Source: an uncultured Acidobacteriota bacterium
GTDB taxonomy: Bacteria > Acidobacteriota > Vicinamibacteria > Vicinamibacterales > CAVVIG01
Assembly (NCBI GenBank): GCA_963757355.1
Contig: CAVWRG010000003.1
Coordinates: forward strand, 261,120-325,119
Length of the DNA: 64,000 bases
Direction: 5' to 3'
The translations under genes and the position numbers were made by a program. Positions within the stretch are counted from its first letter, which is position 1. Every line of letters starts with the position of its first letter. Positions 5,544 through 61,241 of this stretch are shown piece by piece. The notes below the pieces were generated by a model that made no database searches, was not told where the DNA came from, and worked only from the letters and a program-made list of their open reading frames with translations.

Positions 5544-5578
5544 GTGAATTGGTGAGTTGGTGAATGGGTGAGTTGGTG
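5544..5578. repeat. single-arm word repeat of the GGTGA(A/G)TTGG family
   Basis: Sequence gtgaattggtgagttggtgaatgggtgagttggtg, lying between the nth start and the dehydrogenase stop. The word matches the element at 2246-2365. Confidence 0.7.
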
Positions 5579-5588
5579 TTCCCAAATT

Positions 5589-6533
5589 TCATTCGGGAAC
5601 CGGTGTCAGTGGCGGACGGCCTGCGAGGACGGCGAGCACATTGTCGGCTGCGAGATCGGCCATCGCCGTGCGCGTTTCCGTGGTGCCGCTGGCGAGATGC
5701 GGCACGAGGAGCACGTTTTCGAGCGACAGCAGGTCCGGGTGAACCTCCGGCTCGTTCTCGTAGACATCGAGCGCCGCGCCTGCGATCAGATGGTGCTGCA
5801 GCGCCCACGCGAGCGCCCCTTCGTCCACGACCGGACCGCGTGCGGTGTTGATCAGATACGCGGAGCGCTTCATGCGCGAGAACGCCCGCTGGTCGATCAG
5901 GTGACGCGTCTCCGGCGTCAAGGGCACGTGCAGCGACACGACGTCGGACGTATTCAGCAGACGATCCAGCGACATCGCTTCCGCTCCTGGCAGATCCGAC
6001 TCCCGCCTCGACGTGTAGGCGACCCGCATGCCGAACGCGGGCGCCCGCGCCGCGACGGCGCGCGCGATACGGCCCAGGCCGACGATCCCCAGCTGCTTGC
6101 CCTTCAGCTCGGTGCCGAGCATGAAGTCGAGCGCCCAGCCTTTCCACTCGCCGCGCCGCAGCAGCCGTTCACCCTCGGACAACCGGCGCGTAATCGCCAG
6201 GATGAGCGACCAGGTGAAATCGGCCACCGACTCGGTGAGCACATCGGGCGTGTTGGTGACGACGATGCCGCGAGAGCGGGCATACGGGACGTCCACGTTG
6301 TTGAAGCCGACCGCGACGTTGGCGACGATCTTCAGCGACGGCGCCGCATCGATCACGCGTCGATCGATGCGATCCGTGAGCAGACACACGAGCGCGTCCT
6401 TGCCGTCGAGACGGGCGCACAATTCATCCGGCGGAATCGCCGCGTCCCCCGTATACAGGTCGACGTCGCCGATCGCCCGGAGCTTCGCCAGGACGGACGA
6501 TGGAAGTTTCCGGGTGATGAGAATGCTGGGCAT
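5589..6533 (-). CDS. D-isomer-specific 2-hydroxyacid dehydrogenase (glyoxylate/hydroxypyruvate reductase-like)
   Basis: NAD-binding LGIVGLGRIARAVA, catalytic region LINTARGPVVDE, and VLLVPHLASGT. Confidence 0.85.
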   Translation of the reverse strand: MPSILITRKLPSSVLAKLRAIGDVDLYTGDAAIPPDELCARLDGKDALVCLLTDRIDRRVIDAAPSLKIVANVAVGFNNVDVPYARSRGIVVTNTPDVLTESVADFTWSLILAITRRLSEGERLLRRGEWKGWALDFMLGTELKGKQLGIVGLGRIARAVAARAPAFGMRVAYTSRRESDLPGAEAMSLDRLLNTSDVVSLHVPLTPETRHLIDQRAFSRMKRSAYLINTARGPVVDEGALAWALQHHLIAGAALDVYENEPEVHPDLLSLENVLLVPHLASGTTETRTAMADLAADNVLAVLAGRPPLTPVPE

Positions 6534-6555
6534 GGTCGGAATGAGATCGGTCTAA

Positions 6556-6625
6556 CACAAAGGACACAATGGACACAAAGGAAACCTCTACTGGCTTTAC
6601 CTTGGTGTCCTTGGTGTCCTCTGTG
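6556..6625. repeat. hairpin of CAC(A/G)(A/G)AGG words after the BMC operon
   Basis: Arm cacaaaggacacaatggacacaaagg (6556-6581) pairs with ccttggtgtccttggtgtcctctgtg (6600-6625), with an 18-nt loop. Confidence 0.8.
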
Positions 6626-6662
6626 TTGAATCAGCGCGTCGTTCACCAGAAAGCGCGCGGCT

Positions 6663-6908
6663 TCAGTGTCCGTACGACTGGCAGAACCCGCAGTGGTTGC
6701 AGCGCACCGCCGGCTCGATCAAGCACGCACCGTCAGTGTCGCCGCCGGATGCCAGGGGAAGCAGCCCGTGGCTGGCGTGCAGCCGGCAGGCATCCTGTCC
6801 CGGCGAAGGCGCAGCCGCCGAGGCGGGCGACCCGGCCTGGCGGGCGATCGCGTCACGCACCATCGCGCGGAGCTCCTGCTCAGAGACTTCCATCGAATTC
6901 CACGTCAT
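6663..6908 (-). CDS. small Cys/His-rich protein with N-terminal encapsulation-peptide-like helix
   Basis: 81 aa (76 if it starts at ATG 6893). It has helix SEQELRAMVRDAIARQ, a Pro/Ala/Ser linker and a C-terminal C-x7-C-x2-C-x2-C (ACLIEPAVRCNHCGFCQSYGH). GC3 is high. It overlaps the 3' end of the preceding BMC-P gene. Confidence 0.6.
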   Translation of the reverse strand: MTWNSMEVSEQELRAMVRDAIARQAGSPASAAAPSPGQDACRLHASHGLLPLASGGDTDGACLIEPAVRCNHCGFCQSYGH

Positions 6909-7158
6909 CGATGATCCCGATGATCGCGGCGTCCACGGGCGCCGCTTTCCGGCCCAGCGCCTCTCCAGCCGCGCGACCCTCGAGGACGATCAGGACTTTT
7001 TCGTGCACGCCAGCGCCGACGCCGTCCACCGCGAGCAACGCCACACCGCGCGGCGTGTCGTCCATATTCAGCGGCTGCACCAGCAACAGCTTGGCGCCCT
7101 CGAACTTCTTGTGCTTCTGCGTCGCGACGACGGTCCCCACGACTCGGCCAATCTGCAT
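6880..7158 (-). CDS. BMC vertex pentamer protein (BMC-P, EutN/CcmL family), paralog 1
   Basis: MQIGRVVGTVVATQK...LLLVQP...AVDGVGAGVHEKVLIV...VDAAIIGIID; 92 aa. Confidence 0.9.
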   Translation of the reverse strand: MQIGRVVGTVVATQKHKKFEGAKLLLVQPLNMDDTPRGVALLAVDGVGAGVHEKVLIVLEGRAAGEALGRKAAPVDAAIIGIIDDVEFDGSL

Positions 7159-7265
7159 CTGGTTATCTGGTTATCTAGTGATCTGGTTATCTGGTTATCT
7201 GGTTATTTGGTTATCTGGTTTCAATGATTCAATAAATGACCATATAACCAGATAACGAGATGACC
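7159..7265. repeat. octamer (CTGGTTAT) tandem array forming a hairpin between two BMC-P genes
   Basis: About eight copies of ctggttat/ctagtgat lie at 7159-7220. A complementary arm accatataaccagataacgagatgacc lies at 7239-7265. Confidence 0.8.
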
Positions 7266-7269
7266 ACAT

Positions 7270-7542
7270 TTACGTGTCTGCGAGGTTCCAGTGATCGACG
7301 ATGCCGACGATGCCCGCGTCGACCGGCGGCTCGGCCGGGTAAAACGGAAAGCTCGCTTCCTTGCCGCGCACGAAGAAGACGTTCTCGCCAATGCCCGCGC
7401 CGACGGCGTCGACGGCGACGATCGGCCGTCCGGCCGGCTCGCCCGCGGGTGTGAGCGGCTGCACGACGAGCAGCTTGATGCCGGCAAGTTGCGCGTCTTT
7501 CTGCGTGGCGACGACGTCGCCAATCACACGGGCGAGGTGCAT
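7270..7542 (-). CDS. BMC vertex pentamer protein (BMC-P), paralog 2
   Basis: MHLARVIGDVVATQK...LLVVQP...AVDAVGAGIGENVFFV...VDAGIVGIVD. ATG at 7542 has GGAG 10 nt upstream. The track extension to 7620 would overlap paralog 3. Confidence 0.88.
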   Translation of the reverse strand: MHLARVIGDVVATQKDAQLAGIKLLVVQPLTPAGEPAGRPIVAVDAVGAGIGENVFFVRGKEASFPFYPAEPPVDAGIVGIVDHWNLADT

Positions 7543-7564
7543 GGGACGACGCTCCAAGGGGTCA

Positions 7565-7843
7565 TCAGCGCTTCTCTTCCTGGAGATCCACGGTGTCGAT
7601 GATGCCGACGACCGCGGCATCCACCGGACAATCCTTCAATCCGGACGCCATCCGCGCCGAGCTGCCGCTGACGATCAGCACCGTCTCGCCGACGCCGGCA
7701 TCGACGGTGTCGACGGCGACCAGATAATGGCCTTCCGGCGTGCCGCGCGGATCCATCGGCCGCGCAATGAGCAGCTTACTGCTGACGAGGCGCGGATCCT
7801 TCCTCGTCGCAACGATGGTTCCTACGATTTTCGCCAGCAGCAT
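7565..7843 (-). CDS. BMC vertex pentamer protein (BMC-P), paralog 3
   Basis: MLLAKIVGTIVATRK...LLIARP...AVDTVDAGVGETVLIV...VDAAVVGIID; 92 aa. Confidence 0.9.
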   Translation of the reverse strand: MLLAKIVGTIVATRKDPRLVSSKLLIARPMDPRGTPEGHYLVAVDTVDAGVGETVLIVSGSSARMASGLKDCPVDAAVVGIIDTVDLQEEKR

Positions 7844-7910
7844 TCAGATTTTTCGATTTTCGATTGCAGAGCTTCAATCGTCGCCCGTCCATCGAGCGGA
7901 GATTTCAGCG

Positions 7911-8204
7911 CTAGGCCTTCGACGTCGTCGCCTTGCCGATCGGGAGCGCGTCCTCGAGATTGGCGTGCGGGCGCGGAATCACATGGACCGAGACGAGCTC
8001 GCCGACCCGGCGCGCCGCCGCGGCGCCTGCGTCGGTGGCTGCCTTGACTGCCGCGACGTCGCCGCGAACGATCGCCGTGACGTAGCCCGCGCCGATCTTC
8101 TCCCAGCCGACGAGCGTGACCTTCGCGGCCTTCACCATGGCGTCGGCAGCCTCGATCATCGCGACCAGGCCCTTCGTTTCGATCATCCCGAGTGCCTCAC
8201 CCAT
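7911..8204 (-). CDS. BMC hexamer shell protein (BMC-H, PduA/EutM/CcmK-like)
   Basis: [26 protein letters not shown]...[17 protein letters not shown]...[16 protein letters not shown] lies 6 nt upstream of the ATG. Confidence 0.93.
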
Positions 8205-8293
8205 TACTGACTCCTTGAATATCGCTGATGGCTAATAGCTCATGGACGAGAGATCGAACGCCTTGGCCAGGAGCCGTCAGCCGCTTGGGCATC

Positions 8294-8330
8294 CCCGAGC
8301 CCGAGCCCGGAGCCCGAGCCCTGAGCCCTG
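8294..8330. repeat. tandem CCGAGC/CTGAGC word run between the aldolase and BMC-H genes
   Basis: Sequence cccgagcccgagcccggagcccgagccctgagccctg. I found no obvious complementary arm. Confidence 0.6.
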
Positions 8331-8331
8331 A

Positions 8332-9255
8332 CTATCGTAAGTACCGAATCGCGTCCTCGATGAGCGCGGAGAGCTCGCGGTATGTTAACCGAATTTCTCC
8401 CTCCGCCTCCGCCGAAGACCTCGGCGAGTCGCCGCCGCGCGTGAGCTCCAGCACGAGACGCTGGCCGCCGCCGGAGGGCGCGCGCACCACCTGGCACGTC
8501 GCATCCTCGCTCTCGCGTGGCGCCGGCGCGTCAGACGGACCCCGGCCGCCCGGCGCAGGCGACGGGCCAGCGCCCGGGCCTTCCGCGGGGTCGGCGCAAA
8601 TCGGCGCCGGTGCTTTGATGCCGTACGAGCCCCGCAGCCCCTGTAAACGCGTGACCTCCTCGCGCGAGAGGACGTTCTCGCGGCCAAGCGTGCGCGCCAC
8701 GAGACTGATCTTCGCGAAGTGCTCGATCGTCTCCATCTTGTAGTACGCGCCGAAGAGATCGCTGCCGACCGTCAGCGCGCCATGGTTGGCCAGCAGCATC
8801 CCGTCGTGCGCCTTGATGTATTTGCGGACCGCTTCGGGCAGCTCGTTGGTCGAGGGCGTGGCGTACTCGGCGATCGGCACGCTGCCGAGCGTCGTCAACA
8901 CCTCCGCCAGGACGGCGCGATCGAGTGGAATGCCAGCCACCGCGAAGCCGGTTGCGGTCGGCGGATGCGCGTGCACCACGGCGTTCACATCGGGCCGCTG
9001 CCGATACACTTCGAGGTGCATCAGGGTTTCCGATGATGGATCGCGGTCGCCCTGCAGCTTGCGCCCCTCGAGGTCCGTGATGCACATCATGTCGGGGGTC
9101 ATGAACCCCTTGCACACGCTCTTCGGCGTCATCAGAAGGCGGGCCGCGTCGAGCCGCACGCTGATGTTGCCGTCGTTCGACGCGGTGTACCCGCGCGCGT
9201 ACATTCGGCGGCCGACTTCGACGATGTCGGCGCGGAGCGAGGACTCAGTGCTCAT
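8332..9255 (-). CDS. class II aldolase/adducin-family enzyme with long C-terminal extension ending in an encapsulation-peptide-like helix
   Basis: Core motifs NDGNISVR, SSETLMHLEVY, VVHAHPPTATGF and LLANHGALTVG. A Pro/Gly/Ala-rich tail of about 95 aa follows, ending in the amphipathic helix LTYRELSALIEDAIRYLR. Confidence 0.9.
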   Translation of the reverse strand: MSTESSLRADIVEVGRRMYARGYTASNDGNISVRLDAARLLMTPKSVCKGFMTPDMMCITDLEGRKLQGDRDPSSETLMHLEVYRQRPDVNAVVHAHPPTATGFAVAGIPLDRAVLAEVLTTLGSVPIAEYATPSTNELPEAVRKYIKAHDGMLLANHGALTVGSDLFGAYYKMETIEHFAKISLVARTLGRENVLSREEVTRLQGLRGSYGIKAPAPICADPAEGPGAGPSPAPGGRGPSDAPAPRESEDATCQVVRAPSGGGQRLVLELTRGGDSPRSSAEAEGEIRLTYRELSALIEDAIRYLR

Positions 9256-9554
9256 GCGGTTCGCCCTTCGACAGGCTCAGGGCGGCCTGAGCCCGCCGAA
9301 GGCCGAGCCCGGTATTTGTCGCGGCACGTCGTCGAGCAGAAGAACAACTGCTGGCGTCCGACGGTGACCGAAATCGCGCGTTCAGGCAACACGAACGTGC
9401 CGCAGACAGGGTCGCGCACCATGGGGACCGCGCGCGTAGGACGCACTGGCATCCGGGGCCTGCCGGTGATCCCTTCGATGATTCCGTCGACGACGCGCCA
9501 GAATGCGCGCGCGATGAAGATGAAAAGGATCAGCAGGAGGATGAGACGGAGCAT
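9252..9554 (-). CDS. small membrane-anchored YHS/TRASH-like Cys-motif protein
   Basis: The internal ATG at 9554 gives MLRLILLLILFIFIARAFW (TM), then DPVCGTFV...LFFCSTTCRDKY. The start overlaps the TPR stop (TGATG) and the stop overlaps the aldolase start (ATGA). The rest of track ORF 9252-9890 is out-of-frame overlap with the TPR gene. Confidence 0.7.
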   Translation of the reverse strand: MLRLILLLILFIFIARAFWRVVDGIIEGITGRPRMPVRPTRAVPMVRDPVCGTFVLPERAISVTVGRQQLFFCSTTCRDKYRARPSAGSGRPEPVEGRTA

Positions 9555-10186
9555 CAGGCACCTGGCTTCTGTCCTTCTCCGGAGCCCATGCCTGGGTGAG
9601 CGGACCGCAAGCTCTCGAGCGCGCGCTTGGCCGCCTGTCCCTCGGGACCGTTGGGATCGACCTCGAGAACCCGTTGCCACGCCTGCGTCGCGCCTTCGAG
9701 GTCCTGCTTGCCGAAGGCCTTCACGATCCCTTCGTTGAGCAGCGTTTTCGCGTGCTTCGGATCCAGCTTCAGCGAATGCTCGAACTGCGCGAGCGCCTTG
9801 TCGGGCTGATTCGTGTAGTAGTACGCCACGCCGAGATCGGTGCTCACGTTGACATCGTTCGGGCTGAGCCGCACGGCGTCCGAGTACCACTTGATCGCAT
9901 CGTCGTACCGTTCGGCGTCGAAGTAGAGGTTCGCCAGCTCGACGCGCGGCTTGGCGTTGGTCGGCTCGCGCTCGGCCACCGAGGTGAGGGCTTTCACCTG
10001 CGCATCGTCGAGAACGGCGGCGCGCGTGGTGGTGGAGCCGCTGGCGGCAGGAGCTGATGCGGCTGTCGCCTGCGTCGGCGCCGGGGCGGACGGACGAATG
10101 GCCGCCTGCTGGTTGCCGATGATCCAGCCGGCGATCAAGCCGAACACGACGCCGGCAACGCCGAATGCGATGGCATCAGACTTCAT
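9554..10186 (-). CDS. membrane-anchored TPR-repeat protein
   Basis: N-terminal TM AFGVAGVVFGLIAGWII, an Ala/Ser/Thr linker, then TPR-like repeats (LANLYFDAERYDDAIKWYSDAVRLSPND...). Confidence 0.8.
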   Translation of the reverse strand: MKSDAIAFGVAGVVFGLIAGWIIGNQQAAIRPSAPAPTQATAASAPAASGSTTTRAAVLDDAQVKALTSVAEREPTNAKPRVELANLYFDAERYDDAIKWYSDAVRLSPNDVNVSTDLGVAYYYTNQPDKALAQFEHSLKLDPKHAKTLLNEGIVKAFGKQDLEGATQAWQRVLEVDPNGPEGQAAKRALESLRSAHPGMGSGEGQKPGA

Positions 10187-10204
10187 GGGGACTCAAAACC
10201 GCTT

Positions 10205-10281
10205 CACCACGGAGGACACGGAGGACGCGGAGGAACATTCAATCAGGTTTGCCCTCCGTGTCCTTCGTGTCCTCTGTGGTG
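10205..10281. repeat. hairpin of CACGGAGG words
   Basis: Arm caccacggaggacacggaggacgcggagg (10205-10233) pairs with ccctccgtgtccttcgtgtcctctgtggtgg (10251-10281). Confidence 0.85.
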
Positions 10282-10294
10282 GCGCGTTTATCGA

Positions 10295-11023
10295 TCATAG
10301 CAGTGTGCGGAGAAACCAGTCCACCAACACGCGGACGAGATCCGGATCGTGGTTGAACATGTTCGTGCCGTGCCCGGCGTCGTCGAGCGTCTTGATTTCG
10401 CGCGTGCCGCCCCCGAGTGCGGCCAGCGCCTTGGCGGACCGCAGCGCATATGCGTCGTTCGAGCCGGCAACCAGCAGAGCGGGCCGCGCGCCGTACTTCC
10501 GCATCGCCGCTTCAACGCGCAGCGAGCGATACTCCAGAGTCGCCGACAAGAGCGCAAGGCTCTTGATTGACGGATCCGCAGCGGCAGCGATGATCGCGAT
10601 GTTCGCGCCGATCGACGCGCCGGCGATCCCAATCAGCGTCGTCTGGACCAGATCGGGGCGTGACGCGAGAAACGCGCGCGACGCTTTCACATCCAGGGCC
10701 AGCCGTGCCCAGTCGGGTTCGCCACCGGACGCCTGGGCGGGCGACGAGCCGCCGTGCCCGCGAAAATCGATGGCGAGCGCGTGGACACCCGCGTCAGCCA
10801 GTCGGGTCGCCACAGTCTGCCAATCGTCGCGGGACCGCGTGAGCATGTGCAGCAGAATCACCGCAGGCGCCGGACGCCGCGTGCCTTCGTAGAGCGTCGC
10901 GGCGATCGTCACGCCGTCGTCGGTGCGAAACGTGACGGTTCGAGCGGTAGCCGCTTCGGCCGCAATCGGGGAACACAACACAATGATCGCCAACAGCGCA
11001 ACCGCCAGGCGCCCAACGTTCAC
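10295..11023 (-). CDS. secreted alpha/beta hydrolase
   Basis: Signal peptide; HG-like oxyanion region ILLHML, nucleophile elbow GASIG, C-terminal DDAGHG. Confidence 0.8.
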   Translation of the reverse strand: MNVGRLAVALLAIIVLCSPIAAEAATARTVTFRTDDGVTIAATLYEGTRRPAPAVILLHMLTRSRDDWQTVATRLADAGVHALAIDFRGHGGSSPAQASGGEPDWARLALDVKASRAFLASRPDLVQTTLIGIAGASIGANIAIIAAAADPSIKSLALLSATLEYRSLRVEAAMRKYGARPALLVAGSNDAYALRSAKALAALGGGTREIKTLDDAGHGTNMFNHDPDLVRVLVDWFLRTLL

Positions 11024-11784: not shown

Positions 11785-11798
11785 TCAGACGCTCGGAG

Positions 11799-11965
11799 GT
11801 GCTGGGATGCTAGGTGCTAAGTGCTAGGGTGCTGGGTGCTCTAGGTGCTCGGTGCTGGGTGCCACGTGCCGAGTGCCACTGGCTACATGCTGAGCTATGG
11901 CTCCGAATTGTTCCTGGCCGAATTCTGATTCTTGTCGCAGCACTCTCAGCACTCCAGCACCTCGG
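11799..11965. repeat. long GTGCT(A/G)GG word array with a short complementary arm
   Basis: About ten gtgctggg/gtgctagg-like units lie at 11799-11879. The complementary arm gcagcactctcagcactccagcacctcgg lies at 11938-11965, ending 2 nt before the glmM stop. Confidence 0.8.
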
Positions 11966-11967
11966 AT

Positions 11968-13329
11968 CTACCCGAGATGTTCTTTCACCACGTCCACAAT
12001 CTCCTGCGCCCAGGCGCGGATCTCCTGCTCGTTCTGGCCTTCGAGCATCACGCGCAGGAGCGGCTCCGTGCCGGAGTAGCGCACGAGCAGGCGGCCCTGT
12101 CCGTCGACGCGCGCCTCGACGCGCGCGATCGCGGCCGCGACGGCCGGCACCGTCTTCAAGTCGGTCTTCTCTCGCACGCGGACATTGAGCAGCACCTGGG
12201 GATACGTCGTGAGATCGGCGGCCAGGTCGGCGAGCGATCGGCGGCTCAGGACGATCGTCCGCAAGACGTTGAGCGCAGTACAAAGCCCGTCGCCGGTGAA
12301 CAGATACTCGGAAAAGATGATGTGCCCCGATTGCTCGCCGCCGAGCGAGAGGTCGCGCGCGAGCATCTCTTCCATGACGTACTTGTCGCCCACCGCGCAG
12401 CGCACGAGGTCGATCGCGGTACGACGCAGCGCGATCTCGAGCCCGATGTTGCTCATCACCGTGGCGACGATCGCGCCGCCGCGCAGCCGCGCCTCGCGCT
12501 GCAGCTGCACGCCGCACATCAGCAGCACGGCGTCGCCGTCCACGATGCGGCCGCGCTCGTCGACGAAAATGGCGCGGTCGCCGTCGCCGTCGAACGCTAC
12601 CCCCATCCGGCAGCCGCGCTCGACGACCGTGCGTGCGAGCCGCTCCGGATGCGTCGATCCGCATCCCAGGTTGATGTTGCGTCCATCGGGCTCGTTGCCG
12701 ATGACGATCGCATCGAAGCCGAGGCTGCGGAACAAGGCGGGCGCGACGGTCGTCGTCGCGCCGTTTGCGCAGTCGATGGCGAGCGGGAAACCGACGAGCG
12801 CGGACGACTCGGGAAAAACCGCGCGCAGATGATCGAGATACGCGCCGACGAGATCGGCCTCCAGAACGGGCCCGGCCTCGCCCGGCGTCGCGCGCCAGGC
12901 GGAGTCGGCGACGACGGCTTCCACCTCGCGCTCGACGCGCTCGGTGAATTTCTCACCGCGCCCGGAAAACACTTTGATCCCGTTGTCCTCGAACGGATTG
13001 TGCGACGCGGAGATCACGACGCCCGCATCGTAGCCCAGCTTGCGCGTGAGGTACGCCACCGCCGGCGTGGGGACGACGCCCGCGCTCGTCACAGAGGCTC
13101 CTTCGCCTGTGGCGCCGTGGGCGAGTTCGCGTTCGATCCACGGACCCGACTCACGCGTGTCGCGCCCGACCAGCAAGCGCGGCGATTCAGCGGCGCCGTG
13201 CGGCAGCGCGCGCACGAGCGCGGCGCCGAGACGGCGCACGGTCGCCGGGTCGAGCGGCGCGCGGCCGGCGACGCCGCGGACGCCATCAGTGCCGAATAGC
13301 CGGGGGATTGTCGCTTCAGTTTCTGACAC
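11968..13329 (-). CDS. glmM: phosphoglucosamine mutase
   Basis: LFGTDGVRGVAG, active-site SASHNPFEDNGIK, GDGDRAIFVDE. GTG at 13329 is the probable start; the track ATG at 13398 lies inside cdaR. Confidence 0.93.
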   Translation of the reverse strand: MSETEATIPRLFGTDGVRGVAGRAPLDPATVRRLGAALVRALPHGAAESPRLLVGRDTRESGPWIERELAHGATGEGASVTSAGVVPTPAVAYLTRKLGYDAGVVISASHNPFEDNGIKVFSGRGEKFTERVEREVEAVVADSAWRATPGEAGPVLEADLVGAYLDHLRAVFPESSALVGFPLAIDCANGATTTVAPALFRSLGFDAIVIGNEPDGRNINLGCGSTHPERLARTVVERGCRMGVAFDGDGDRAIFVDERGRIVDGDAVLLMCGVQLQREARLRGGAIVATVMSNIGLEIALRRTAIDLVRCAVGDKYVMEEMLARDLSLGGEQSGHIIFSEYLFTGDGLCTALNVLRTIVLSRRSLADLAADLTTYPQVLLNVRVREKTDLKTVPAVAAAIARVEARVDGQGRLLVRYSGTEPLLRVMLEGQNEQEIRAWAQEIVDVVKEHLG

Positions 13330-14245
13330 GTGAGATTCGCACCTGCACCACCGACGGATCCGTCCCCGTGACGCCCGCGTCTCGCGCGCCGCCGGCATGC
13401 ACGGTCAGCGTGTATTGACCGGCGCCGAGACGAGCGAGATCCACATACGCCGAGACATCGTCGGCCTCGACGCGGCTCAGCGCCGCCCGGCTCCCGCGCA
13501 GCCGCACGTCGACCACGGGAGGCACCGCTTCCGCCGACAGCCCGGCGGTCACATTGCGCAAGTGCACGGGACGCTCACGGATGACCCGCTCTTCCGGCCC
13601 TGGCAGGACATCCACCAGGACATTCGCGGAGCGCGGCAGTTTCAGCCGCACGGCGGGGTCCAGAAACCCAACCGTAACATTTTCGCGGACAGGCGCGCTC
13701 GCCCCGTCCAGGGAGATGGGCTCTGTAATGGCCTCGCTCACGCGCCCGACTGCGCTCGCCGGGCCGATCATCTCGACCGTGGGCGGGTCCGCGGTGATCT
13801 TCCCAATCACGTAGCCGGGTGCCGGCTCTCCCTCGATATCCGGCGTGACCGGCACCTGGCGCGAGGCTTCTGGTTCGAACACCATCGCCACAGACGGCGG
13901 CGTGATCTGCACCACCTCGACGCCGAACGGCGCGCGCACTTGTTCGGGCGTCAGGTGAAACAGCCGCCGGCCGGCGCGCGCGCCGCGCAAGTCGAGCACC
14001 GCGACAATGTCGCCCGGCGAGACGCGGCTCAGCGCACCTGACGCACCGCGGACGCGGACGTCCACGGTCGACGGCGCGTCGTCGTGCAGCTCGAGCCCCG
14101 GGGGAAACTGCTGGAGCTCGAGCGGCACGCGCAGACCGCGCTCGACGGTTTCTTCACCCGAGACCACCATCCACAGCATCAGCGCGAGGCCGAGGGAGAG
14201 GACCTTCAAGCCGAAATGACGGAACGGCCAGATGCGGCGCATCAC
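13316..14245 (-). CDS. cdaR: YbbR-domain protein (CdaA regulator CdaR)
   Basis: N-terminal TM followed by repeated YbbR-like beta modules (VPLELQQFPPGLEL..., VDVRVRG...). It sits in the conserved position between cdaA and glmM. Confidence 0.8.
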   Translation of the reverse strand: MMRRIWPFRHFGLKVLSLGLALMLWMVVSGEETVERGLRVPLELQQFPPGLELHDDAPSTVDVRVRGASGALSRVSPGDIVAVLDLRGARAGRRLFHLTPEQVRAPFGVEVVQITPPSVAMVFEPEASRQVPVTPDIEGEPAPGYVIGKITADPPTVEMIGPASAVGRVSEAITEPISLDGASAPVRENVTVGFLDPAVRLKLPRSANVLVDVLPGPEERVIRERPVHLRNVTAGLSAEAVPPVVDVRLRGSRAALSRVEADDVSAYVDLARLGAGQYTLTVHAGGARDAGVTGTDPSVVQVRISRVRN

Positions 14246-15057
14246 GTGTACTGCACCCGCGCATCACGCCTTGGCGCGCGGCCGCGGCGATTGAGCATCA
14301 ACATGCGCAGCCGCGCCCGCAGCGCGTCCGCGTCGAGTCCGCGCTCAATCTGCCCGTCGTTCACCAGCGACACGCTCCCCGATTCCTCGGACACGACGAT
14401 GGCGACCGCATCGTTTTCTTCCGTCAAGCCAATCGCCGCGCGATGGCGCGATCCGAGCTCCTTACCGAGCTTCGGGTTGACCGTGAGCGGCAGGAAGCAG
14501 GCGGCTGCCGCCACGCGATCGTCCTGCACGATCACCGCGCCGTCGTGCAGCGGAGACGTGGTTTGAAAGACGCTCAGCAGGAGATCGTATGTCAACACGG
14601 CATCGAGCGGGATGCCCCCTTCGATGTAGTTGCGCAGACCGATCTGCCGCTCGATCGCGATAATGGCGCCGACGTGCTGAGCGGAGAGCATCGTCGCCGC
14701 GACAACCAGCTCTTCGATCGTCTCCTCAGCCGACTCCGGTTTGGCGAAGTACCGGAAGAACGGCGCACGGCCCAGATGCGCGAGCGCGCGGCGGATGTCA
14801 GACTGAAACAACACGATCACCGCGAACACGATGTAGCCGACCATGTTGCGGATCAGCCAGTTCACGGTGTCGAGGTGGCCCCATCGCGATCCGTAGAAGA
14901 GGGCCACGATCACGCCGCCGCCGAGAGCCATCTGCACGGCGCGCGTGCCTCGAATCAGCTTGAGGACCTCGTAAATCAGCACCGACACCACGAGGATGTC
15001 GACGAGATCCCACCAGCCGATCGGCGGACGACGAAGGAACGCGGTGATCCAACTCAT
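14242..15057 (-). CDS. cdaA: diadenylate cyclase
   Basis: Three N-terminal TMs, DisA_N motifs DGAVIV and LGSRHRAAIGLTE, then AIVVSEESGSVSL. Confidence 0.92.
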   Translation of the reverse strand: MSWITAFLRRPPIGWWDLVDILVVSVLIYEVLKLIRGTRAVQMALGGGVIVALFYGSRWGHLDTVNWLIRNMVGYIVFAVIVLFQSDIRRALAHLGRAPFFRYFAKPESAEETIEELVVAATMLSAQHVGAIIAIERQIGLRNYIEGGIPLDAVLTYDLLLSVFQTTSPLHDGAVIVQDDRVAAAACFLPLTVNPKLGKELGSRHRAAIGLTEENDAVAIVVSEESGSVSLVNDGQIERGLDADALRARLRMLMLNRRGRAPRRDARVQYT

Positions 15058-15062
15058 ATCAA

Positions 15063-15112
15063 GGCAGAGGGCAGAGGGTCATATCAGGGCAAGCCCTCTG
15101 CCTCCTGCCCTG
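15063..15112. repeat. GGCAGAGG word hairpin spanning the folP stop codon
   Basis: Arm ggcagagggcagaggg (15063-15078) pairs with gccctctgcctcctgccctg (15093-15112). The folP TGA is at 15084-15086 in the loop. Confidence 0.8.
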
Positions 15113-15983
15113 CGCGCCATATCTCCTCGGCCACCCGTACCACTTGCACCATTTCCTTGACCGCGTGCACGCGCACGATATGGGCGCCGGCCAGCACGGC
15201 CGCGGTGACCGCGGCGGCCGTTCCCCAGTCGCGCTCTTTCGGCGGACGATCCGCAAGAGCGTGGCGCATGAACGACTTGCGTGACGGCCCGACGAGCAGC
15301 GGACGATCGAGCGCCGCTGCGAGCGCCGGCAACTGGCCCAGCACACCATAGCTGTGCCGCGGCCGTTTGGCAAACCCGATCCCGGGATCGGCGATGATGC
15401 GGTCGATCGGGACGCCAGATGACACGGCCGTGGCGATGCTCGCACGCAGTTCCGCGGCGATCTCGACGATGAGGTCCGCGTACTCCGCTTCGCTCTGCAT
15501 CGTCTGCGGCACGCCGCGCGAGTGCATCAGCACCAACGCGGCGCCGCCGGCTGCCGCGACCGAGCCGAGCGCGGGATCGAGGCGCAGGCCGCTGACGTCG
15601 TTGATCATCACGGCGCCGGCATCGACGGCGGCGCGCGCCACGCTGGCTTTGTACGTATCGATGGAGAGTGGAATCGACAAACGTCCCGACAGGCCCTGAA
15701 TGACGGGCAGGACGCGCGCGAGCTCGTCTGCCGCTGCTACCGGCTGCGCGCCGGGCCGCGTGGACTCCCCGCCGACGTCGATGATGTCTGCGCCGTCAGC
15801 TTCGAGTTGCAGCGCCTGGGCAACGGCCGCGTCGGTATCGACTGGCGAGCTGCCGGCAAACGAATCCGGCGTGACGTTGACGACGCCCATGAGGAGACAA
15901 CGTTCCCCAAGCCGGAGCACTCGATGACCGGCGAGCGAGACGTCGTAGACTCGACGAGGGGGAGAGGGGAATTTACAATTCAC
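15084..15983 (-). CDS. folP: dihydropteroate synthase
   Basis: MGVVNVTPDSF, DIIDVGGESTRPG, SIDTYK, INDVSG. The GTG start at 15983 lies inside a repeat arm, so the true start is uncertain. Confidence 0.9.
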   Translation of the reverse strand: MNCKFPSPPRRVYDVSLAGHRVLRLGERCLLMGVVNVTPDSFAGSSPVDTDAAVAQALQLEADGADIIDVGGESTRPGAQPVAAADELARVLPVIQGLSGRLSIPLSIDTYKASVARAAVDAGAVMINDVSGLRLDPALGSVAAAGGAALVLMHSRGVPQTMQSEAEYADLIVEIAAELRASIATAVSSGVPIDRIIADPGIGFAKRPRHSYGVLGQLPALAAALDRPLLVGPSRKSFMRHALADRPPKERDWGTAAAVTAAVLAGAHIVRVHAVKEMVQVVRVAEEIWRAGQEAEGLP

Positions 15984-29774: not shown

Positions 29775-29919
29775 CACTTCATCACGAAGTCACTTCATCA
29801 TTCATCACGAAGAACGAAGAACACGGAGATCACGAAGGCGGTTCTTGTTCGAAGACTGTTCTGGTACGTTGCACAAAATGACGCCTTCGTGACCTTCGTG
29901 CCCTCCGTGACTTCGTGAT
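29775..29919. repeat. large hairpin of CACGAAG/CACTTCAT words in the divergent promoter region
   Basis: The arm at 29775-29838 (cacttcatcacgaagtcacttcatcattcatcacgaagaacgaagaacacggagatcacgaagg) pairs with 29884-29919 (ccttcgtgaccttcgtgccctccgtgacttcgtgat). Confidence 0.85.
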
Positions 29920-32865: not shown

Positions 32866-32923
32866 CACGAAGTCACGAAGAGCACGAAGAGCACAAAAGT
32901 ACGCAGAGCAGAAAATCTTCGTG
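32866..32923. repeat. CACGAAG word run with a short complementary arm
   Basis: cacgaagtcacgaagagcacgaagagcac (32866-32894), followed by cttcgtg (32917-32923). Confidence 0.7.
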
Positions 32924-37838: not shown

Positions 37839-38040
37839 GCAGGTCTAAAGACCTGCGCCACGAATGAGTGCGGGCAAAGACCTGCGCCACGAATGAGTGT
37901 GGGCGTAGCATGACTTCAGGCCCGTCAATGTCGTGGCCGTAGCGCAGGGACCTCAGGCCCGCCAAGCCGTGGGCGTAGCGCGGGACCTCAGGCCCGCCAA
38001 GCCGTGGGCGTAGCGCGGGACTTTAGTCCCGCCTGACGCC
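37839..38040. repeat. array of six REP-like hairpin units (about 31-36 nt each)
   Basis: The units are built on G(C/T)AGCGC(A/G)GGNC-TNNAG-GNCC(C/T)GC hairpins, e.g. gcaggtctaaagacctgc at 37839-37856 and gcgggactttagtcccgc at 38015-38032. The core matches the repeats flanking the RAYT gene at 60.5-61.2 kb. Confidence 0.85.
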
Positions 38041-38158
38041 GCTGACGCGCGAGTGACCTCGCGCCCCGCCATCGAGCGCCCGCCCGAAGCCGGGGATCGA
38101 CAGGGCTGTCGGTCGCAGTCGACACGGCCGATAAGGAATCAGGTCACTCCGTGTTCTC

Positions 38159-41773: not shown

Positions 41774-41829
41774 ATTTCAGATTTCAGATTTCAGATTTCA
41801 GATTGCAGAGTGCAGAGTGCAGATTGGAG
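41774..41829 (+). repeat. eight tandem heptamers (ATTTCAG x4, ATTGCAG, AGTGCAG x2, ATTGGAG) ending at the RBS of the MBL gene
   Basis: Exact 7-nt register from 41774 to 41829. The last unit supplies GGAG 8 nt before ATG 41838. A short copy (atttcag ctttcag atggagg) lies at 42758-42778 before the paralog. Confidence 0.85.
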
Positions 41830-49711: not shown

Positions 49712-52135
<2,424 letters not shown>

Positions 52136-52138
<3 letters not shown>

Positions 52139-52216
52139 GGAGACACGAAGAACACGGAGATCACGGAGAGTTCGAACGTCCTTCGTGAACTTGGTGTTCT
52201 CCGTGACTCCGTGATG
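52136..52216. repeat. hairpin of CACGGAG/CACGAAG words overlapping the hrpB start
   Basis: Arm cacggagacacgaagaacacggagatcacggagag (52136-52170) pairs with ccttcgtgaacttggtgttctccgtgactccgtgatg (52180-52216). Confidence 0.85.
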
Positions 52217-60462: not shown

Positions 60463-60464
60463 TC

Positions 60465-60556
60465 GTAGCGCAGGTCTTTAGACCTGCCGTTAGTCGTAGC
60501 GCGGGTCTTTAGACCCGCCGTTAGTTGTGGCGCAGGTCTTTAGACCTGCTTTGGTC
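60465..60556. repeat. three tandem REP units downstream of the RAYT gene
   Basis: gtagcgcaggtctttagacctgccgttagtc, gtagcgcgggtctttagacccgccgttagtt, gtggcgcaggtctttagacctgctttggtc. The third unit contains the RAYT stop codon. Confidence 0.88.
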
Positions 60557-61055: not shown

Positions 61056-61085
61056 GCTGGCATCGAAGCAAAGCGCGATCCGAAA

Positions 61086-61241
61086 GCAGGACTAAAGTCC
61101 TGCGCCACGACAGATCGTGTGCAACGGAAGTAGGACTAAAGTCCTGCGCCACGACAGATCGTGTGCAAGCCGAGACCAGTTGTAGCGCGGGTCTTCAGAC
61201 CCGCCGTCGCTGTAGTGCGGCTCTTTTGACTCGCCGTCGCG
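61086..61241. repeat. four REP units upstream of the RAYT gene
   Basis: Two copies of gcaggactaaagtcctgcgccacgacagatcgtgtgcaa (the second begins gtaggac), in orientation opposite to the left cluster. These are followed by gtagcgcgggtcttcagacccgccgtcgct and the degenerate gtagtgcggctcttttgactcgccgtcgcg. Confidence 0.85.

Follow-up and report, generated by a model that had tools for sequence, protein, structure and literature searches.

A nine-gene locus of a Vicinamibacterales genome identified as the main locus of an ACI-type bacterial microcompartment

The ACI type and its closest described relatives

Bacterial microcompartments (BMCs) of the ACI type, a protein-shelled organelle type of soil Acidobacteria, were catalogued in 2021 on the basis of 125 loci, found in Acidobacteria only and mainly in subdivisions 4 and 6 (Sutter et al. 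2021, Nat Commun 12:3809, PMC8217296). The components of the type are a pfam00596 aldolase bearing an encapsulation peptide (EP) at its C-terminus, a hydroxyacid dehydrogenase (pfam00389/02826), one hexameric shell protein (BMC-H) with standard interface motifs and a triplet of pentameric shell proteins (BMC-P), and the listing includes a protein of unknown family with 3 conserved histidines (PMC8217296). Supplementary Data 2 of the same catalogue adds a protein of ~80 aa with an N-terminal EP and conserved Cys (three according to the catalogue), places the BMC-P triplet in the green, grey and orange clades, mentions metal binding for the type, and notes that extra BMC-H, BMC-P and PduS/PduT genes occur occasionally elsewhere in ACI genomes (PMC8217296). 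In most of these genomes, an EP-bearing aldehyde dehydrogenase (AldDh) sits on a satellite locus; its EP lies near the C-terminus and is followed by a domain of ~50 aa, and the enzyme forms a clade of its own next to that of the MIC3 type (PMC8217296). Here we describe a 64-kb stretch of DNA from a Vicinamibacterales genome (contig CAVWRG010000003.1; the whole stretch is called the window below), in which the minus-strand genes between 5589 and 10186 almost certainly constitute the main locus of an ACI-type BMC.

Three other described types come close to ACI. The Planctomycetes-Verrucomicrobia (PVM) type (Erbilgin et al. 2014, as cited in PMC8217296) also combines a class II aldolase that generates an aldehyde with a BMC-P triplet and no trimeric shell protein (BMC-T), and both types probably share the principle of keeping lactaldehyde or a similar aldehyde sequestered. 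However, the PVM locus itself encodes AldDh, a phosphotransacylase (PTAC, here PvmB) and other core enzymes together with two BMC-H, whereas the window has none of these enzymes and one BMC-H. PVM also belongs to other phyla, and the ACI aldolase is not grouped with the PVM aldolase in the catalogue (PMC8217296). The aldolases most similar to that of ACI are found in the HO (Haliangium ochraceum) and MIC3 types, and the MIC3 AldDh is the closest to the ACI AldDh (PMC8217296). A BMC-P triplet is present in HO too, and in HO type I the aldolase is located with two BMC-P on a satellite locus (PMC8217296). The main loci of HO and MIC3, unlike that of ACI, include BMC-T and AldDh, the hosts are Myxobacteria or Planctomycetes, and the descriptions of both types include neither a Cys-rich EP protein of ~80 aa nor a hydroxyacid dehydrogenase (PMC8217296).

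When the window was compared with the ACI type, an acidobacterial host, an EP-tailed aldolase, a dehydrogenase, one BMC-H, three adjacent BMC-P and a small EP/Cys protein were common to both, as were further small proteins without curated family, a metal-binding theme and a main locus without AldDh. Nothing was different in kind, and the differences concern details only: four nearly invariant Cys were found here in the small protein versus three conserved Cys in the catalogue, and the upstream proteins, without curated family in the catalogue, match TPR and YHS/PP0621 models in current libraries. No counterpart of the catalogued protein with 3 conserved histidines was found among the conserved positions of the locus alignments, in which 2 His are conserved at ≥97% in the TPR protein and none in the YHS-like protein. 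For a test of the host, relatives of the aldolase were collected from a scan of one genome per species, which gave 446 loci; the best 80 of them were used here and for the counts per 80 loci below. The closest loci almost all came from metagenome-assembled genomes (MAGs) labelled Vicinamibacterales, gp6 or Acidobacteriota, the best being 98% identical. Vicinamibacteria corresponds to subdivision 6 of the Acidobacteria.

The first-pass annotation of this DNA had called six minus-strand open reading frames between 6663 and 9255, all of which were recovered at the same coordinates, and Pfam bore out the aldolase, the BMC-H and the three BMC-P. The BMC-H gene (7911..8204, minus strand) encodes a 97-aa protein matching PF00936 BMC (1.5e-30), which passes the NCBIfam EutM cut-off (145.7 bits vs 133) and has a median identity of 97% across loci; Lys25 and the IPRPH motif can be read directly in its sequence. 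No other gene in the window has a BMC domain, and EutM gave no second tblastn match there. The three BMC-P genes, also on the minus strand, encode proteins of 92 aa (paralog 1, 7565..7843, PF03319 EutN_CcmL 2.1e-31), 90 aa (paralog 2, 7270..7542, 7.3e-29) and 92 aa (paralog 3, 6880..7158, 1.5e-29), and the last overlaps, at its 3′ end, the small Cys gene if the latter is read as 81 aa. The paralogs are 44–47% identical to one another and each forms an ortholog set across loci, with median identities of 82%, 78% and 83%, respectively. The triplet is thus old, since the paralogs have diverged this far and yet each is 78–83% conserved across loci. Searching the window with E. coli EutM and EutN by tblastn yielded exactly one BMC-H and three BMC-P, in one BMC locus. 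With no BMC-T, one BMC-H and a BMC-P triplet, the locus holds a complete minimal shell gene set, and its recognition as a microcompartment locus stands.

The label "PVM-like" given to the locus in the first-pass annotation did not stand, as host phylum, number of BMC-H, in-locus core enzymes and the triplet clades of the types all differ. A member of the PVM or PVM-like fucose/rhamnose metabolosomes that has lost its core enzymes would share the class II aldolase, the BMC-P triplet and the lack of BMC-T with the window. Yet PVM loci encode two BMC-H and occur only in Planctomycetes and Verrucomicrobia, against a Vicinamibacterales host and one BMC-H here. The triplet clades catalogued for the types are purple/grey/orange in PVM and green/grey/orange in ACI, and the catalogue trees place the ACI aldolase and BMC-P outside the PVM clades (PMC8217296). 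The PVM-like type, in turn, has a Firmicutes host and combines GRM5-like AldDh and PTAC with BMC-P, whereas the window is acidobacterial and neither enzyme was found in it. We consider PVM or PVM-like membership the least credible of the explanations discussed in this work.

Given the one-to-one match with a described locus type, an outcome that the first-pass annotation itself had named as refuting, the locus is not novel; the type is already catalogued and well conserved. Combined with the mechanism proposed below, the ACI main locus is the best overall explanation, to which we give a probability of about 0.85, a figure set mainly by the ACI identification.

Extent and conservation of the nine-gene block

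The conserved module was found to be wider than the 6663–9255 originally delimited, and comprises nine co-directional, closely spaced minus-strand genes (5589–10186). The gene order was fixed in the 80 loci as glmM, pdxJ, TPR, YHS-like, aldolase, BMC-H, three BMC-P, Cys protein, 2-hydroxyacid dehydrogenase and nth, and it is kept in ~155 species-level genomes. The TPR and YHS-like genes were present in all 80, BMC-H in 79, the three BMC-P in 76, the small Cys protein in 65 and the dehydrogenase in 57. Missing genes mostly reflect contig ends, with the exception of ~12 loci in which the dehydrogenase is truly absent.

Since such a pattern could be mere synteny within one order, divergent members of the small-protein family, which has 287 loci among the species representatives, were inspected. 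The divergent set consisted of marine contigs and two soil contigs from metagenomes, with small proteins 45–56% identical to the query homolog P0192 (to which P0270 is 99% identical). These contigs carry the same block of TPR, YHS-like, aldolase, BMC-H, three BMC-P, Cys protein and dehydrogenase genes. One contig of 73 kb keeps the block while the genes upstream of TPR are entirely different. On the marine contigs the Cys-protein gene overlaps each neighbour by four bases, and in locus L160 the reading frames of the small protein and dehydrogenase genes overlap. The recurrence of the same block in divergent contigs, including one with different upstream neighbours, argues that 5589–10186 is a nine-gene functional unit. 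When a profile of the divergent small-protein homologs was used to look for loci outside Vicinamibacterales, nearly all contigs found still bore the label Vicinamibacterales or Acidobacteriota, and a few were mislabelled. The view of the flanks as housekeeping genes therefore held only in part: the 2-hydroxyacid dehydrogenase is an ACI component, kept in divergent lineages with overlapping frames, and the TPR and YHS-like genes also travel with the module.

The same conservation bears on the proposal that the locus is an ordinary satellite, that is, a shell-and-cargo fragment serving a larger canonical metabolosome locus elsewhere in the genome. The absence of core enzymes from the window would fit this, and so would the extra shell genes and PduS/PduT occasionally found elsewhere in ACI genomes (PMC8217296). 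However, a full minimal shell set and the signature enzyme are present, hundreds of genomes share the nine-gene block as a unit, and the catalogue designates a locus of this kind the main one (PMC8217296). A satellite of this kind is thus very improbable.

Several observations on the related loci are recorded here. The L160–L162 and P0192 lineage is marine and of lower GC content, and has the same nine-gene block. Insertions of 2.4–3 kb in some related loci were considered as possible AldDh genes and rejected; they encode instead either a transketolase-like protein (846 aa, opposite strand; L020, L042 and L059) or a metallophosphoesterase (L010-type loci). Some MAGs with the block bear implausible taxon labels ("Bifidobacteriaceae/Bifidobacterium" for L018, L039, L041 and L098, "Betaproteobacteria" for L022, "Acidimicrobiia" for L070 and L115), which are probably binning or labelling errors.

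Cargo candidates, the shared helix and accessory proteins

The signature cargo is a class II (metal-dependent) aldolase-fold enzyme of 307 aa (8332..9255, minus strand), which matches PF00596 Aldolase_II (2.8e-50) over residues 10–184. The motifs already pointed out in it, SSETLMHLEVY, VVHAHPP and LANHGA, are present, and 144 distinct relatives keep them with little or no variation. Among solved structures, L-fuculose-phosphate aldolases come closest to the enzyme (4e-26). Alignment of the 144 sequences with E. coli FucA showed that the equivalents of N29, S71, S72, E73, H92, H94 and H155 are invariant, so that the enzyme has in common with FucA (E. coli 1FUA; S. pneumoniae 4C24) the fold, the Zn ligands H92, H94 and H155, the catalytic E73 and the phosphate-binding N29, S71 and S72. 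FucA, in contrast, has neither the tail nor the EP.

The tail of the aldolase is ~92 aa long. Its linker part (residues ~216–286, 8398..8610, minus strand) is rich in Pro, Gly and Ala and variable in length, and includes two nearly invariant Cys (C220 and C254, each 0.99 conserved in the 144 sequences); a comparison of the tails across the 80 loci further revealed a conserved CQVVQAP-x5-RLV element between the variable stretches. The tail ends in the C-terminal EP EIRLTYRELSALIEDAIRYLR (8335..8397, minus strand), recognized by its conservation, its hydrophobic moment and the ACI description of the catalogue. This end is almost unchanged in 79 of the 80 related loci, and the helix is strongly amphipathic (hydrophobic moment 0.64, a value reached by 0.2% of shuffles).

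Two observations on related aldolases are added. In the closest relative of the window (L001:10001-10907, CAWBJQ010000003.1), a frame shift in the aldolase tail removes the EP; an indel introduced in assembling this long-read MAG is the most likely cause, rather than a real loss. A class II aldolase of Candidatus Acidoferrum sp. (L289:2385-3134, DATEQG010000076.1), 50% identical to the window aldolase over 214 aa, ends in an EP-like helix, LTRNELDALIDEAVRK, and has no shell genes within its 8-kb stretch; it may lie on a satellite locus in another acidobacterial class.

The second cargo candidate is the small cargo/adaptor protein encoded by an 81-aa open reading frame (6663..6908, minus strand), which belongs to no Pfam or NCBIfam family. 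Public gene calls start it at the second Met (76 aa, 6663–6893). It is made up of an N-terminal EP helix (6837–6884), a variable linker and a C-terminal C-x7-C-x2-C-x2-C...GH module (6666–6725), and its N-terminus reads ELRAMVRDAIARQ, i.e. ...SEQELRAMVRDAIARQ. The family is large, with 777 homolog clusters at 90% identity (71–110 aa in those listed) and 269 representatives at 50%. Across 134 small-protein sequences, conservation is ≥98% for the four Cys and 96% for His72. AlphaFold predicts residues 5–20 as a helix with pLDDT >90, the rest being <50.

The aldolase C-terminus and the small-protein N-terminus share the motif EL.A[LM][IV].[DE]A[IV]. In a six-frame translation of the window this motif occurs exactly twice, at these two termini, and it never occurred in 200 residue shuffles; it is conserved in both families. 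The earlier reading of a C-terminal EP on the aldolase and a matching N-terminal helix on the small protein is thereby upheld. EP-mediated encapsulation of the aldolase and the small Cys protein is accordingly likely. From its sequence, the small Cys4/His protein itself would most likely be a Zn-knuckle adaptor or a metal carrier.

We also considered whether the ~50-aa domain that follows the EP of the AldDh is related to the Cys module. This was rejected, as no AldDh fusion was present in the 120 best hits of a 5.8-billion-protein search or in the 150 best representatives. The longer small-protein matches were a frameshift fusion (P0236) or had unrelated N-termini, as in P0244 (183 aa), a representative from the marine lineage, in which the Cys module is joined to an unrelated ~130-aa N-terminal region that replaces the short EP helix. 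In two Vicinamibacterales MAGs (L294:6400-6642 and L324:5575-5976), a small coiled-coil protein with a transmembrane segment and 11-residue RFDDLNASVNx repeats (Pfam HSBP1-like, 4.6e-11) ends in ...ELRALV[VI]DAI..AAPA, which is the helix motif of the small protein. It is located away from any ACI locus, and its neighbours differ between both genomes. The match is probably a coincidence of heptad pattern, though the protein could be an EP-bearing membrane tether.

The last gene of the block encodes a D-isomer 2-hydroxyacid dehydrogenase of 314 aa (5589..6533, minus strand; PF02826 2.5e-59, PF00389 1.2e-32), similar to glyoxylate/hydroxypyruvate reductases. Its best NCBIfam match is glyoxylate reductase, at 342 bits, below the cut-off of 455, and it has no EP-like terminal extension. 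It adjoins the block in 57 of the 80 loci and in divergent lineages. In the loci L016, L026, L027, L029, L031, L037, L041, L048, L051, L060, L067 and L069 it is absent, and nth follows directly after the small protein or the last BMC-P.

Upstream of the aldolase lie two genes for membrane proteins. The first gene of the block encodes a TPR-repeat protein of 210 aa with an N-terminal transmembrane segment (9554..10186, minus strand; Pfam TPR_2/TPR_11/TPR_1, 8e-18 to 7e-17), in which an N-terminal aG..FGli.GW segment is conserved and His145 and His197 are kept at ≥97%. It is followed by a small membrane-anchored protein of the YHS/TRASH type (~100 aa; 9252..9554, minus strand), whose gene overlaps the aldolase start with its stop. 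The model matches of this protein are Pfam YHS, weakly (0.008), and the NCBIfam PP0621 family (8.8e-5); its homolog in L160 is labelled PF04945:YHS, and public sources call the protein "YHS domain-containing protein". It has an N-terminal hydrophobic segment and a C-x21-C-x3-C pattern, with Cys51, Cys73 and Cys77 invariant in 122 sequences, a spacing that we take to fit the TRASH/YHS metal-binding pattern. A putative metal-binding small protein together with two membrane proteins suggests metal supply or membrane positioning. A metal theme is indicated by the three invariant Cys of the YHS/TRASH protein, by the four Cys and the conserved His of the small protein, by the weak similarity of the latter to a Zn lobe (see below), and by the mention of metal binding in the catalogue (PMC8217296).

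Core enzymes, proposed chemistry and genomic surroundings

The statement that the window contains no AldDh, PTAC, acetate kinase (AckA) or alcohol dehydrogenase (AlcDh) was confirmed. None of these enzymes, and no Fe-ADH, was detected in the 64-kb window by tblastn and Pfam scans, and tblastn with EutE, EutG, EutD, EutS and EutQ returned nothing in it. Pfam analysis of the other 41 candidate genes and long open reading frames outside the locus gave housekeeping or unrelated families, such as QueC, FtsH, TilS, RuvABC, FabH, a TonB-dependent receptor and a kinase, with 7 lacking a family and no core enzyme among them. The further step taken in the first-pass annotation, from absence in the window to an organelle with no aldehyde-dehydrogenase core, fails because most ACI genomes, according to the catalogue, have a satellite locus that encodes an EP-bearing AldDh (PMC8217296). 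Given that this AldDh bears an EP, it would be packaged with the other cargo.

On this basis we propose the following mechanism. The single BMC-H would tile the facets of a small icosahedral shell, the vertices of which would be capped by BMC-P pentamers. The amphipathic helix EL-x-A-[LM]-[IV]-x-[DE]-A-[IV] would draw the aldolase, by its C-terminus, and the small Cys protein, by its N-terminus, into the lumen. There the metal-dependent aldolase would cleave a ketose 1-phosphate; the products would be dihydroxyacetone phosphate (DHAP) and either lactaldehyde or glycolaldehyde, both short and reactive, and the satellite-encoded, EP-tagged acylating AldDh would oxidise the aldehyde inside the shell before it could escape. 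The dehydrogenase, being without EP, would probably act outside the shell in the cytoplasm, on the resulting 2-hydroxy or 2-oxo acid (glycolate/glyoxylate or glycerate/hydroxypyruvate). For the small Cys4/His protein, a role as metal carrier or as Zn-knuckle adaptor is most likely; supplying metal or positioning the organelle may be the task of the two membrane proteins.

The aldolase chemistry is supported by the invariance of the FucA metal ligands, the catalytic Glu and the phosphate residues, by fuculose-phosphate aldolases being the nearest solved relatives, and by the glyoxylate-reductase-like character of the dehydrogenase. Nevertheless, the aldehyde-sequestering chemistry from aldolase to AldDh is put forward tentatively, as one possible scheme. 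A series of observations weighs against the identification and mechanism as a whole, and several of them concern this chemistry. The aldolase reached none of the NCBIfam equivalog cut-offs; its best match was OtnC, 3-oxo-tetronate 4-phosphate decarboxylase (140 bits vs a cut-off of 250), and the FucA models scored 124 bits vs 264 and 83 vs 400, below the level of a FucA equivalog. In the alignment with E. coli FucA, the loop equivalent to the Tyr113 loop, which shapes the aldehyde pocket of FucA, has no Tyr or His and is not conserved in the window aldolase and its relatives. The DHAP/metal half of the active site is thus conserved and the aldehyde-binding half is not, and the absence of an equivalog match, the decarboxylase as best match and the unconserved loop make the substrate, and even the reaction class, uncertain.

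Other points of the same kind concern the AldDh. No AldDh was found within ±10 kb of ~157 related loci by tblastn with E. coli EutE; the one EutE match, in L088, was rejected as an ordinary non-acylating ALDH. A scan of the genome collection with the acylating-AldDh motif GAGNxPxx[VI]DE[TS]A, in a GC-codon version, gave arbitrary taxa and no Vicinamibacterales among the matches listed, and none of the AldDhs among these had an ACI-like C-terminus. Scanning the collection with the shared EP motif gave four more main loci and no AldDh among the matches listed. The satellite AldDh step is therefore taken entirely from the catalogue (PMC8217296). The remaining points concern the other proteins and the type itself. 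The helix of the small protein has a hydrophobic moment of 0.23, no better than shuffles on the Eisenberg scale, and its Cys module has no confident AlphaFold model (pLDDT <50). The sole PDB match of the small-protein profile, to a medium-chain alcohol dehydrogenase, was weak and not significant (E 0.27); it aligned IEPaVrCnHCgyC with IEPGVPCGHCRYC, which we take to be the structural-zinc lobe of the medium-chain (MDR) enzyme, and may be read as a lead towards a Zn knuckle, not as a test of one. A search with the YHS-like protein gave only close homologs among the matches listed and so bears weakly on a tie between TPR/YHS proteins and BMCs. The ~12 related loci without the dehydrogenase imply that this enzyme is not essential to the organelle. 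Finally, no experimental or follow-up work on ACI BMCs was found in the searchable literature.

Part of this evidence would suit a self-contained organelle, with the aldolase-fold enzyme and the small Cys protein as its only contents, no AldDh, and decarboxylation, epimerisation or dehydration as its reaction. No AldDh, PTAC, kinase or ADH was found in the window or within 10 kb of the ~157 loci, and the decarboxylase model as best NCBIfam match, with no aldolase cut-off reached, and the unconserved Tyr113 loop point the same way. Against this, the catalogue reports the EP-bearing satellite AldDh "in most genomes" of the ACI type (PMC8217296), an EP on that enzyme implies co-packaging, and the catalytic Glu, Zn ligands and phosphate-binding residues are as in aldolases. 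We therefore regard a self-contained organelle as improbable.

A variant of the ACI reading, which we consider unlikely though somewhat less so, is a metal-centred, membrane-associated metabolosome, as opposed to a PVM-style fucose/rhamnose organelle, with a remodelled aldehyde pocket, a metallochaperone or Zn-knuckle mini-protein in the lumen, and TPR and YHS/TRASH proteins for metal delivery or as a tether. Such an organelle may use another substrate, for example a pentulose 1-phosphate yielding glycolaldehyde, or may carry out a decarboxylation. The ACI main locus with the aldolase-to-AldDh mechanism remains our preferred account.

Some features of the surrounding sequence were also noted. 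A candidate sigma-70-like promoter, TGGACT-18-TATGAT with extended TG (10294..10323, minus strand), is located upstream of the TPR gene; as a weak consensus match, it may mark the operon start. Near the operon, neither a riboswitch nor any other Rfam element was found. Further upstream, 11968–15983 contains folP, cdaA (DAC-domain diadenylate cyclase), a ybbR-like gene and glmM, followed by pdxJ. The glmM-pdxJ pair is present in most related loci, and one metagenome contig also has the run of four genes upstream of pdxJ. This region is an ordinary conserved c-di-AMP/cell-wall cluster, which at least one lineage has lost while retaining the BMC block.

Many intergenic gaps of the window contain short tandem arrays of 7–9-mers, with a different unit in each gap (6540–6640, 7150–7275, 10195–10290, 2326–2364, 5544–5578, 11797–11863, 29884–29918, 32866–32910, 41774–41825 and 52134–52169). 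In the three operon gaps (6540–6640, 7150–7275 and 10195–10290), the array faces an inverted copy, so that the transcript would form a long hairpin. These hairpins have folding energies of -42, -33 and -56 kcal/mol and z values of -5.3, -4.7 and -9.1, and no shuffle folds as well. One gap holds eight copies of AACCAGAT, up to the start codon of BMC-P paralog 3. The repeat hairpins were considered as an operon-specific element, which was rejected, as the arrays occur genome-wide and are not specific to the BMC operon. Longer tandem or REP-like repeats with units of 29–71 bp, e.g. GACCTCAGGCCCGCCAAGCCGTGGGCGTAGCGCGG, are intergenic and far from the BMC locus (37847–38060, 60463–60549 and 61084–61240).

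What looked like a metabolosome without a core is, on the ACI reading, one locus of a catalogued system that is split between loci. Useful for first experiments on ACI are the nine-gene block with its TPR and YHS/TRASH proteins, the Cys4 module, the Cys pair and CQVVQAP element of the aldolase tail, and the non-conserved Tyr113 loop. Acidobacteria, Vicinamibacterales included, rank among the most abundant bacteria of soils, and the module is found in hundreds of their species-level genomes. With so wide a distribution and such conservation, the organelle presumably processes a carbon flux of importance in soil.

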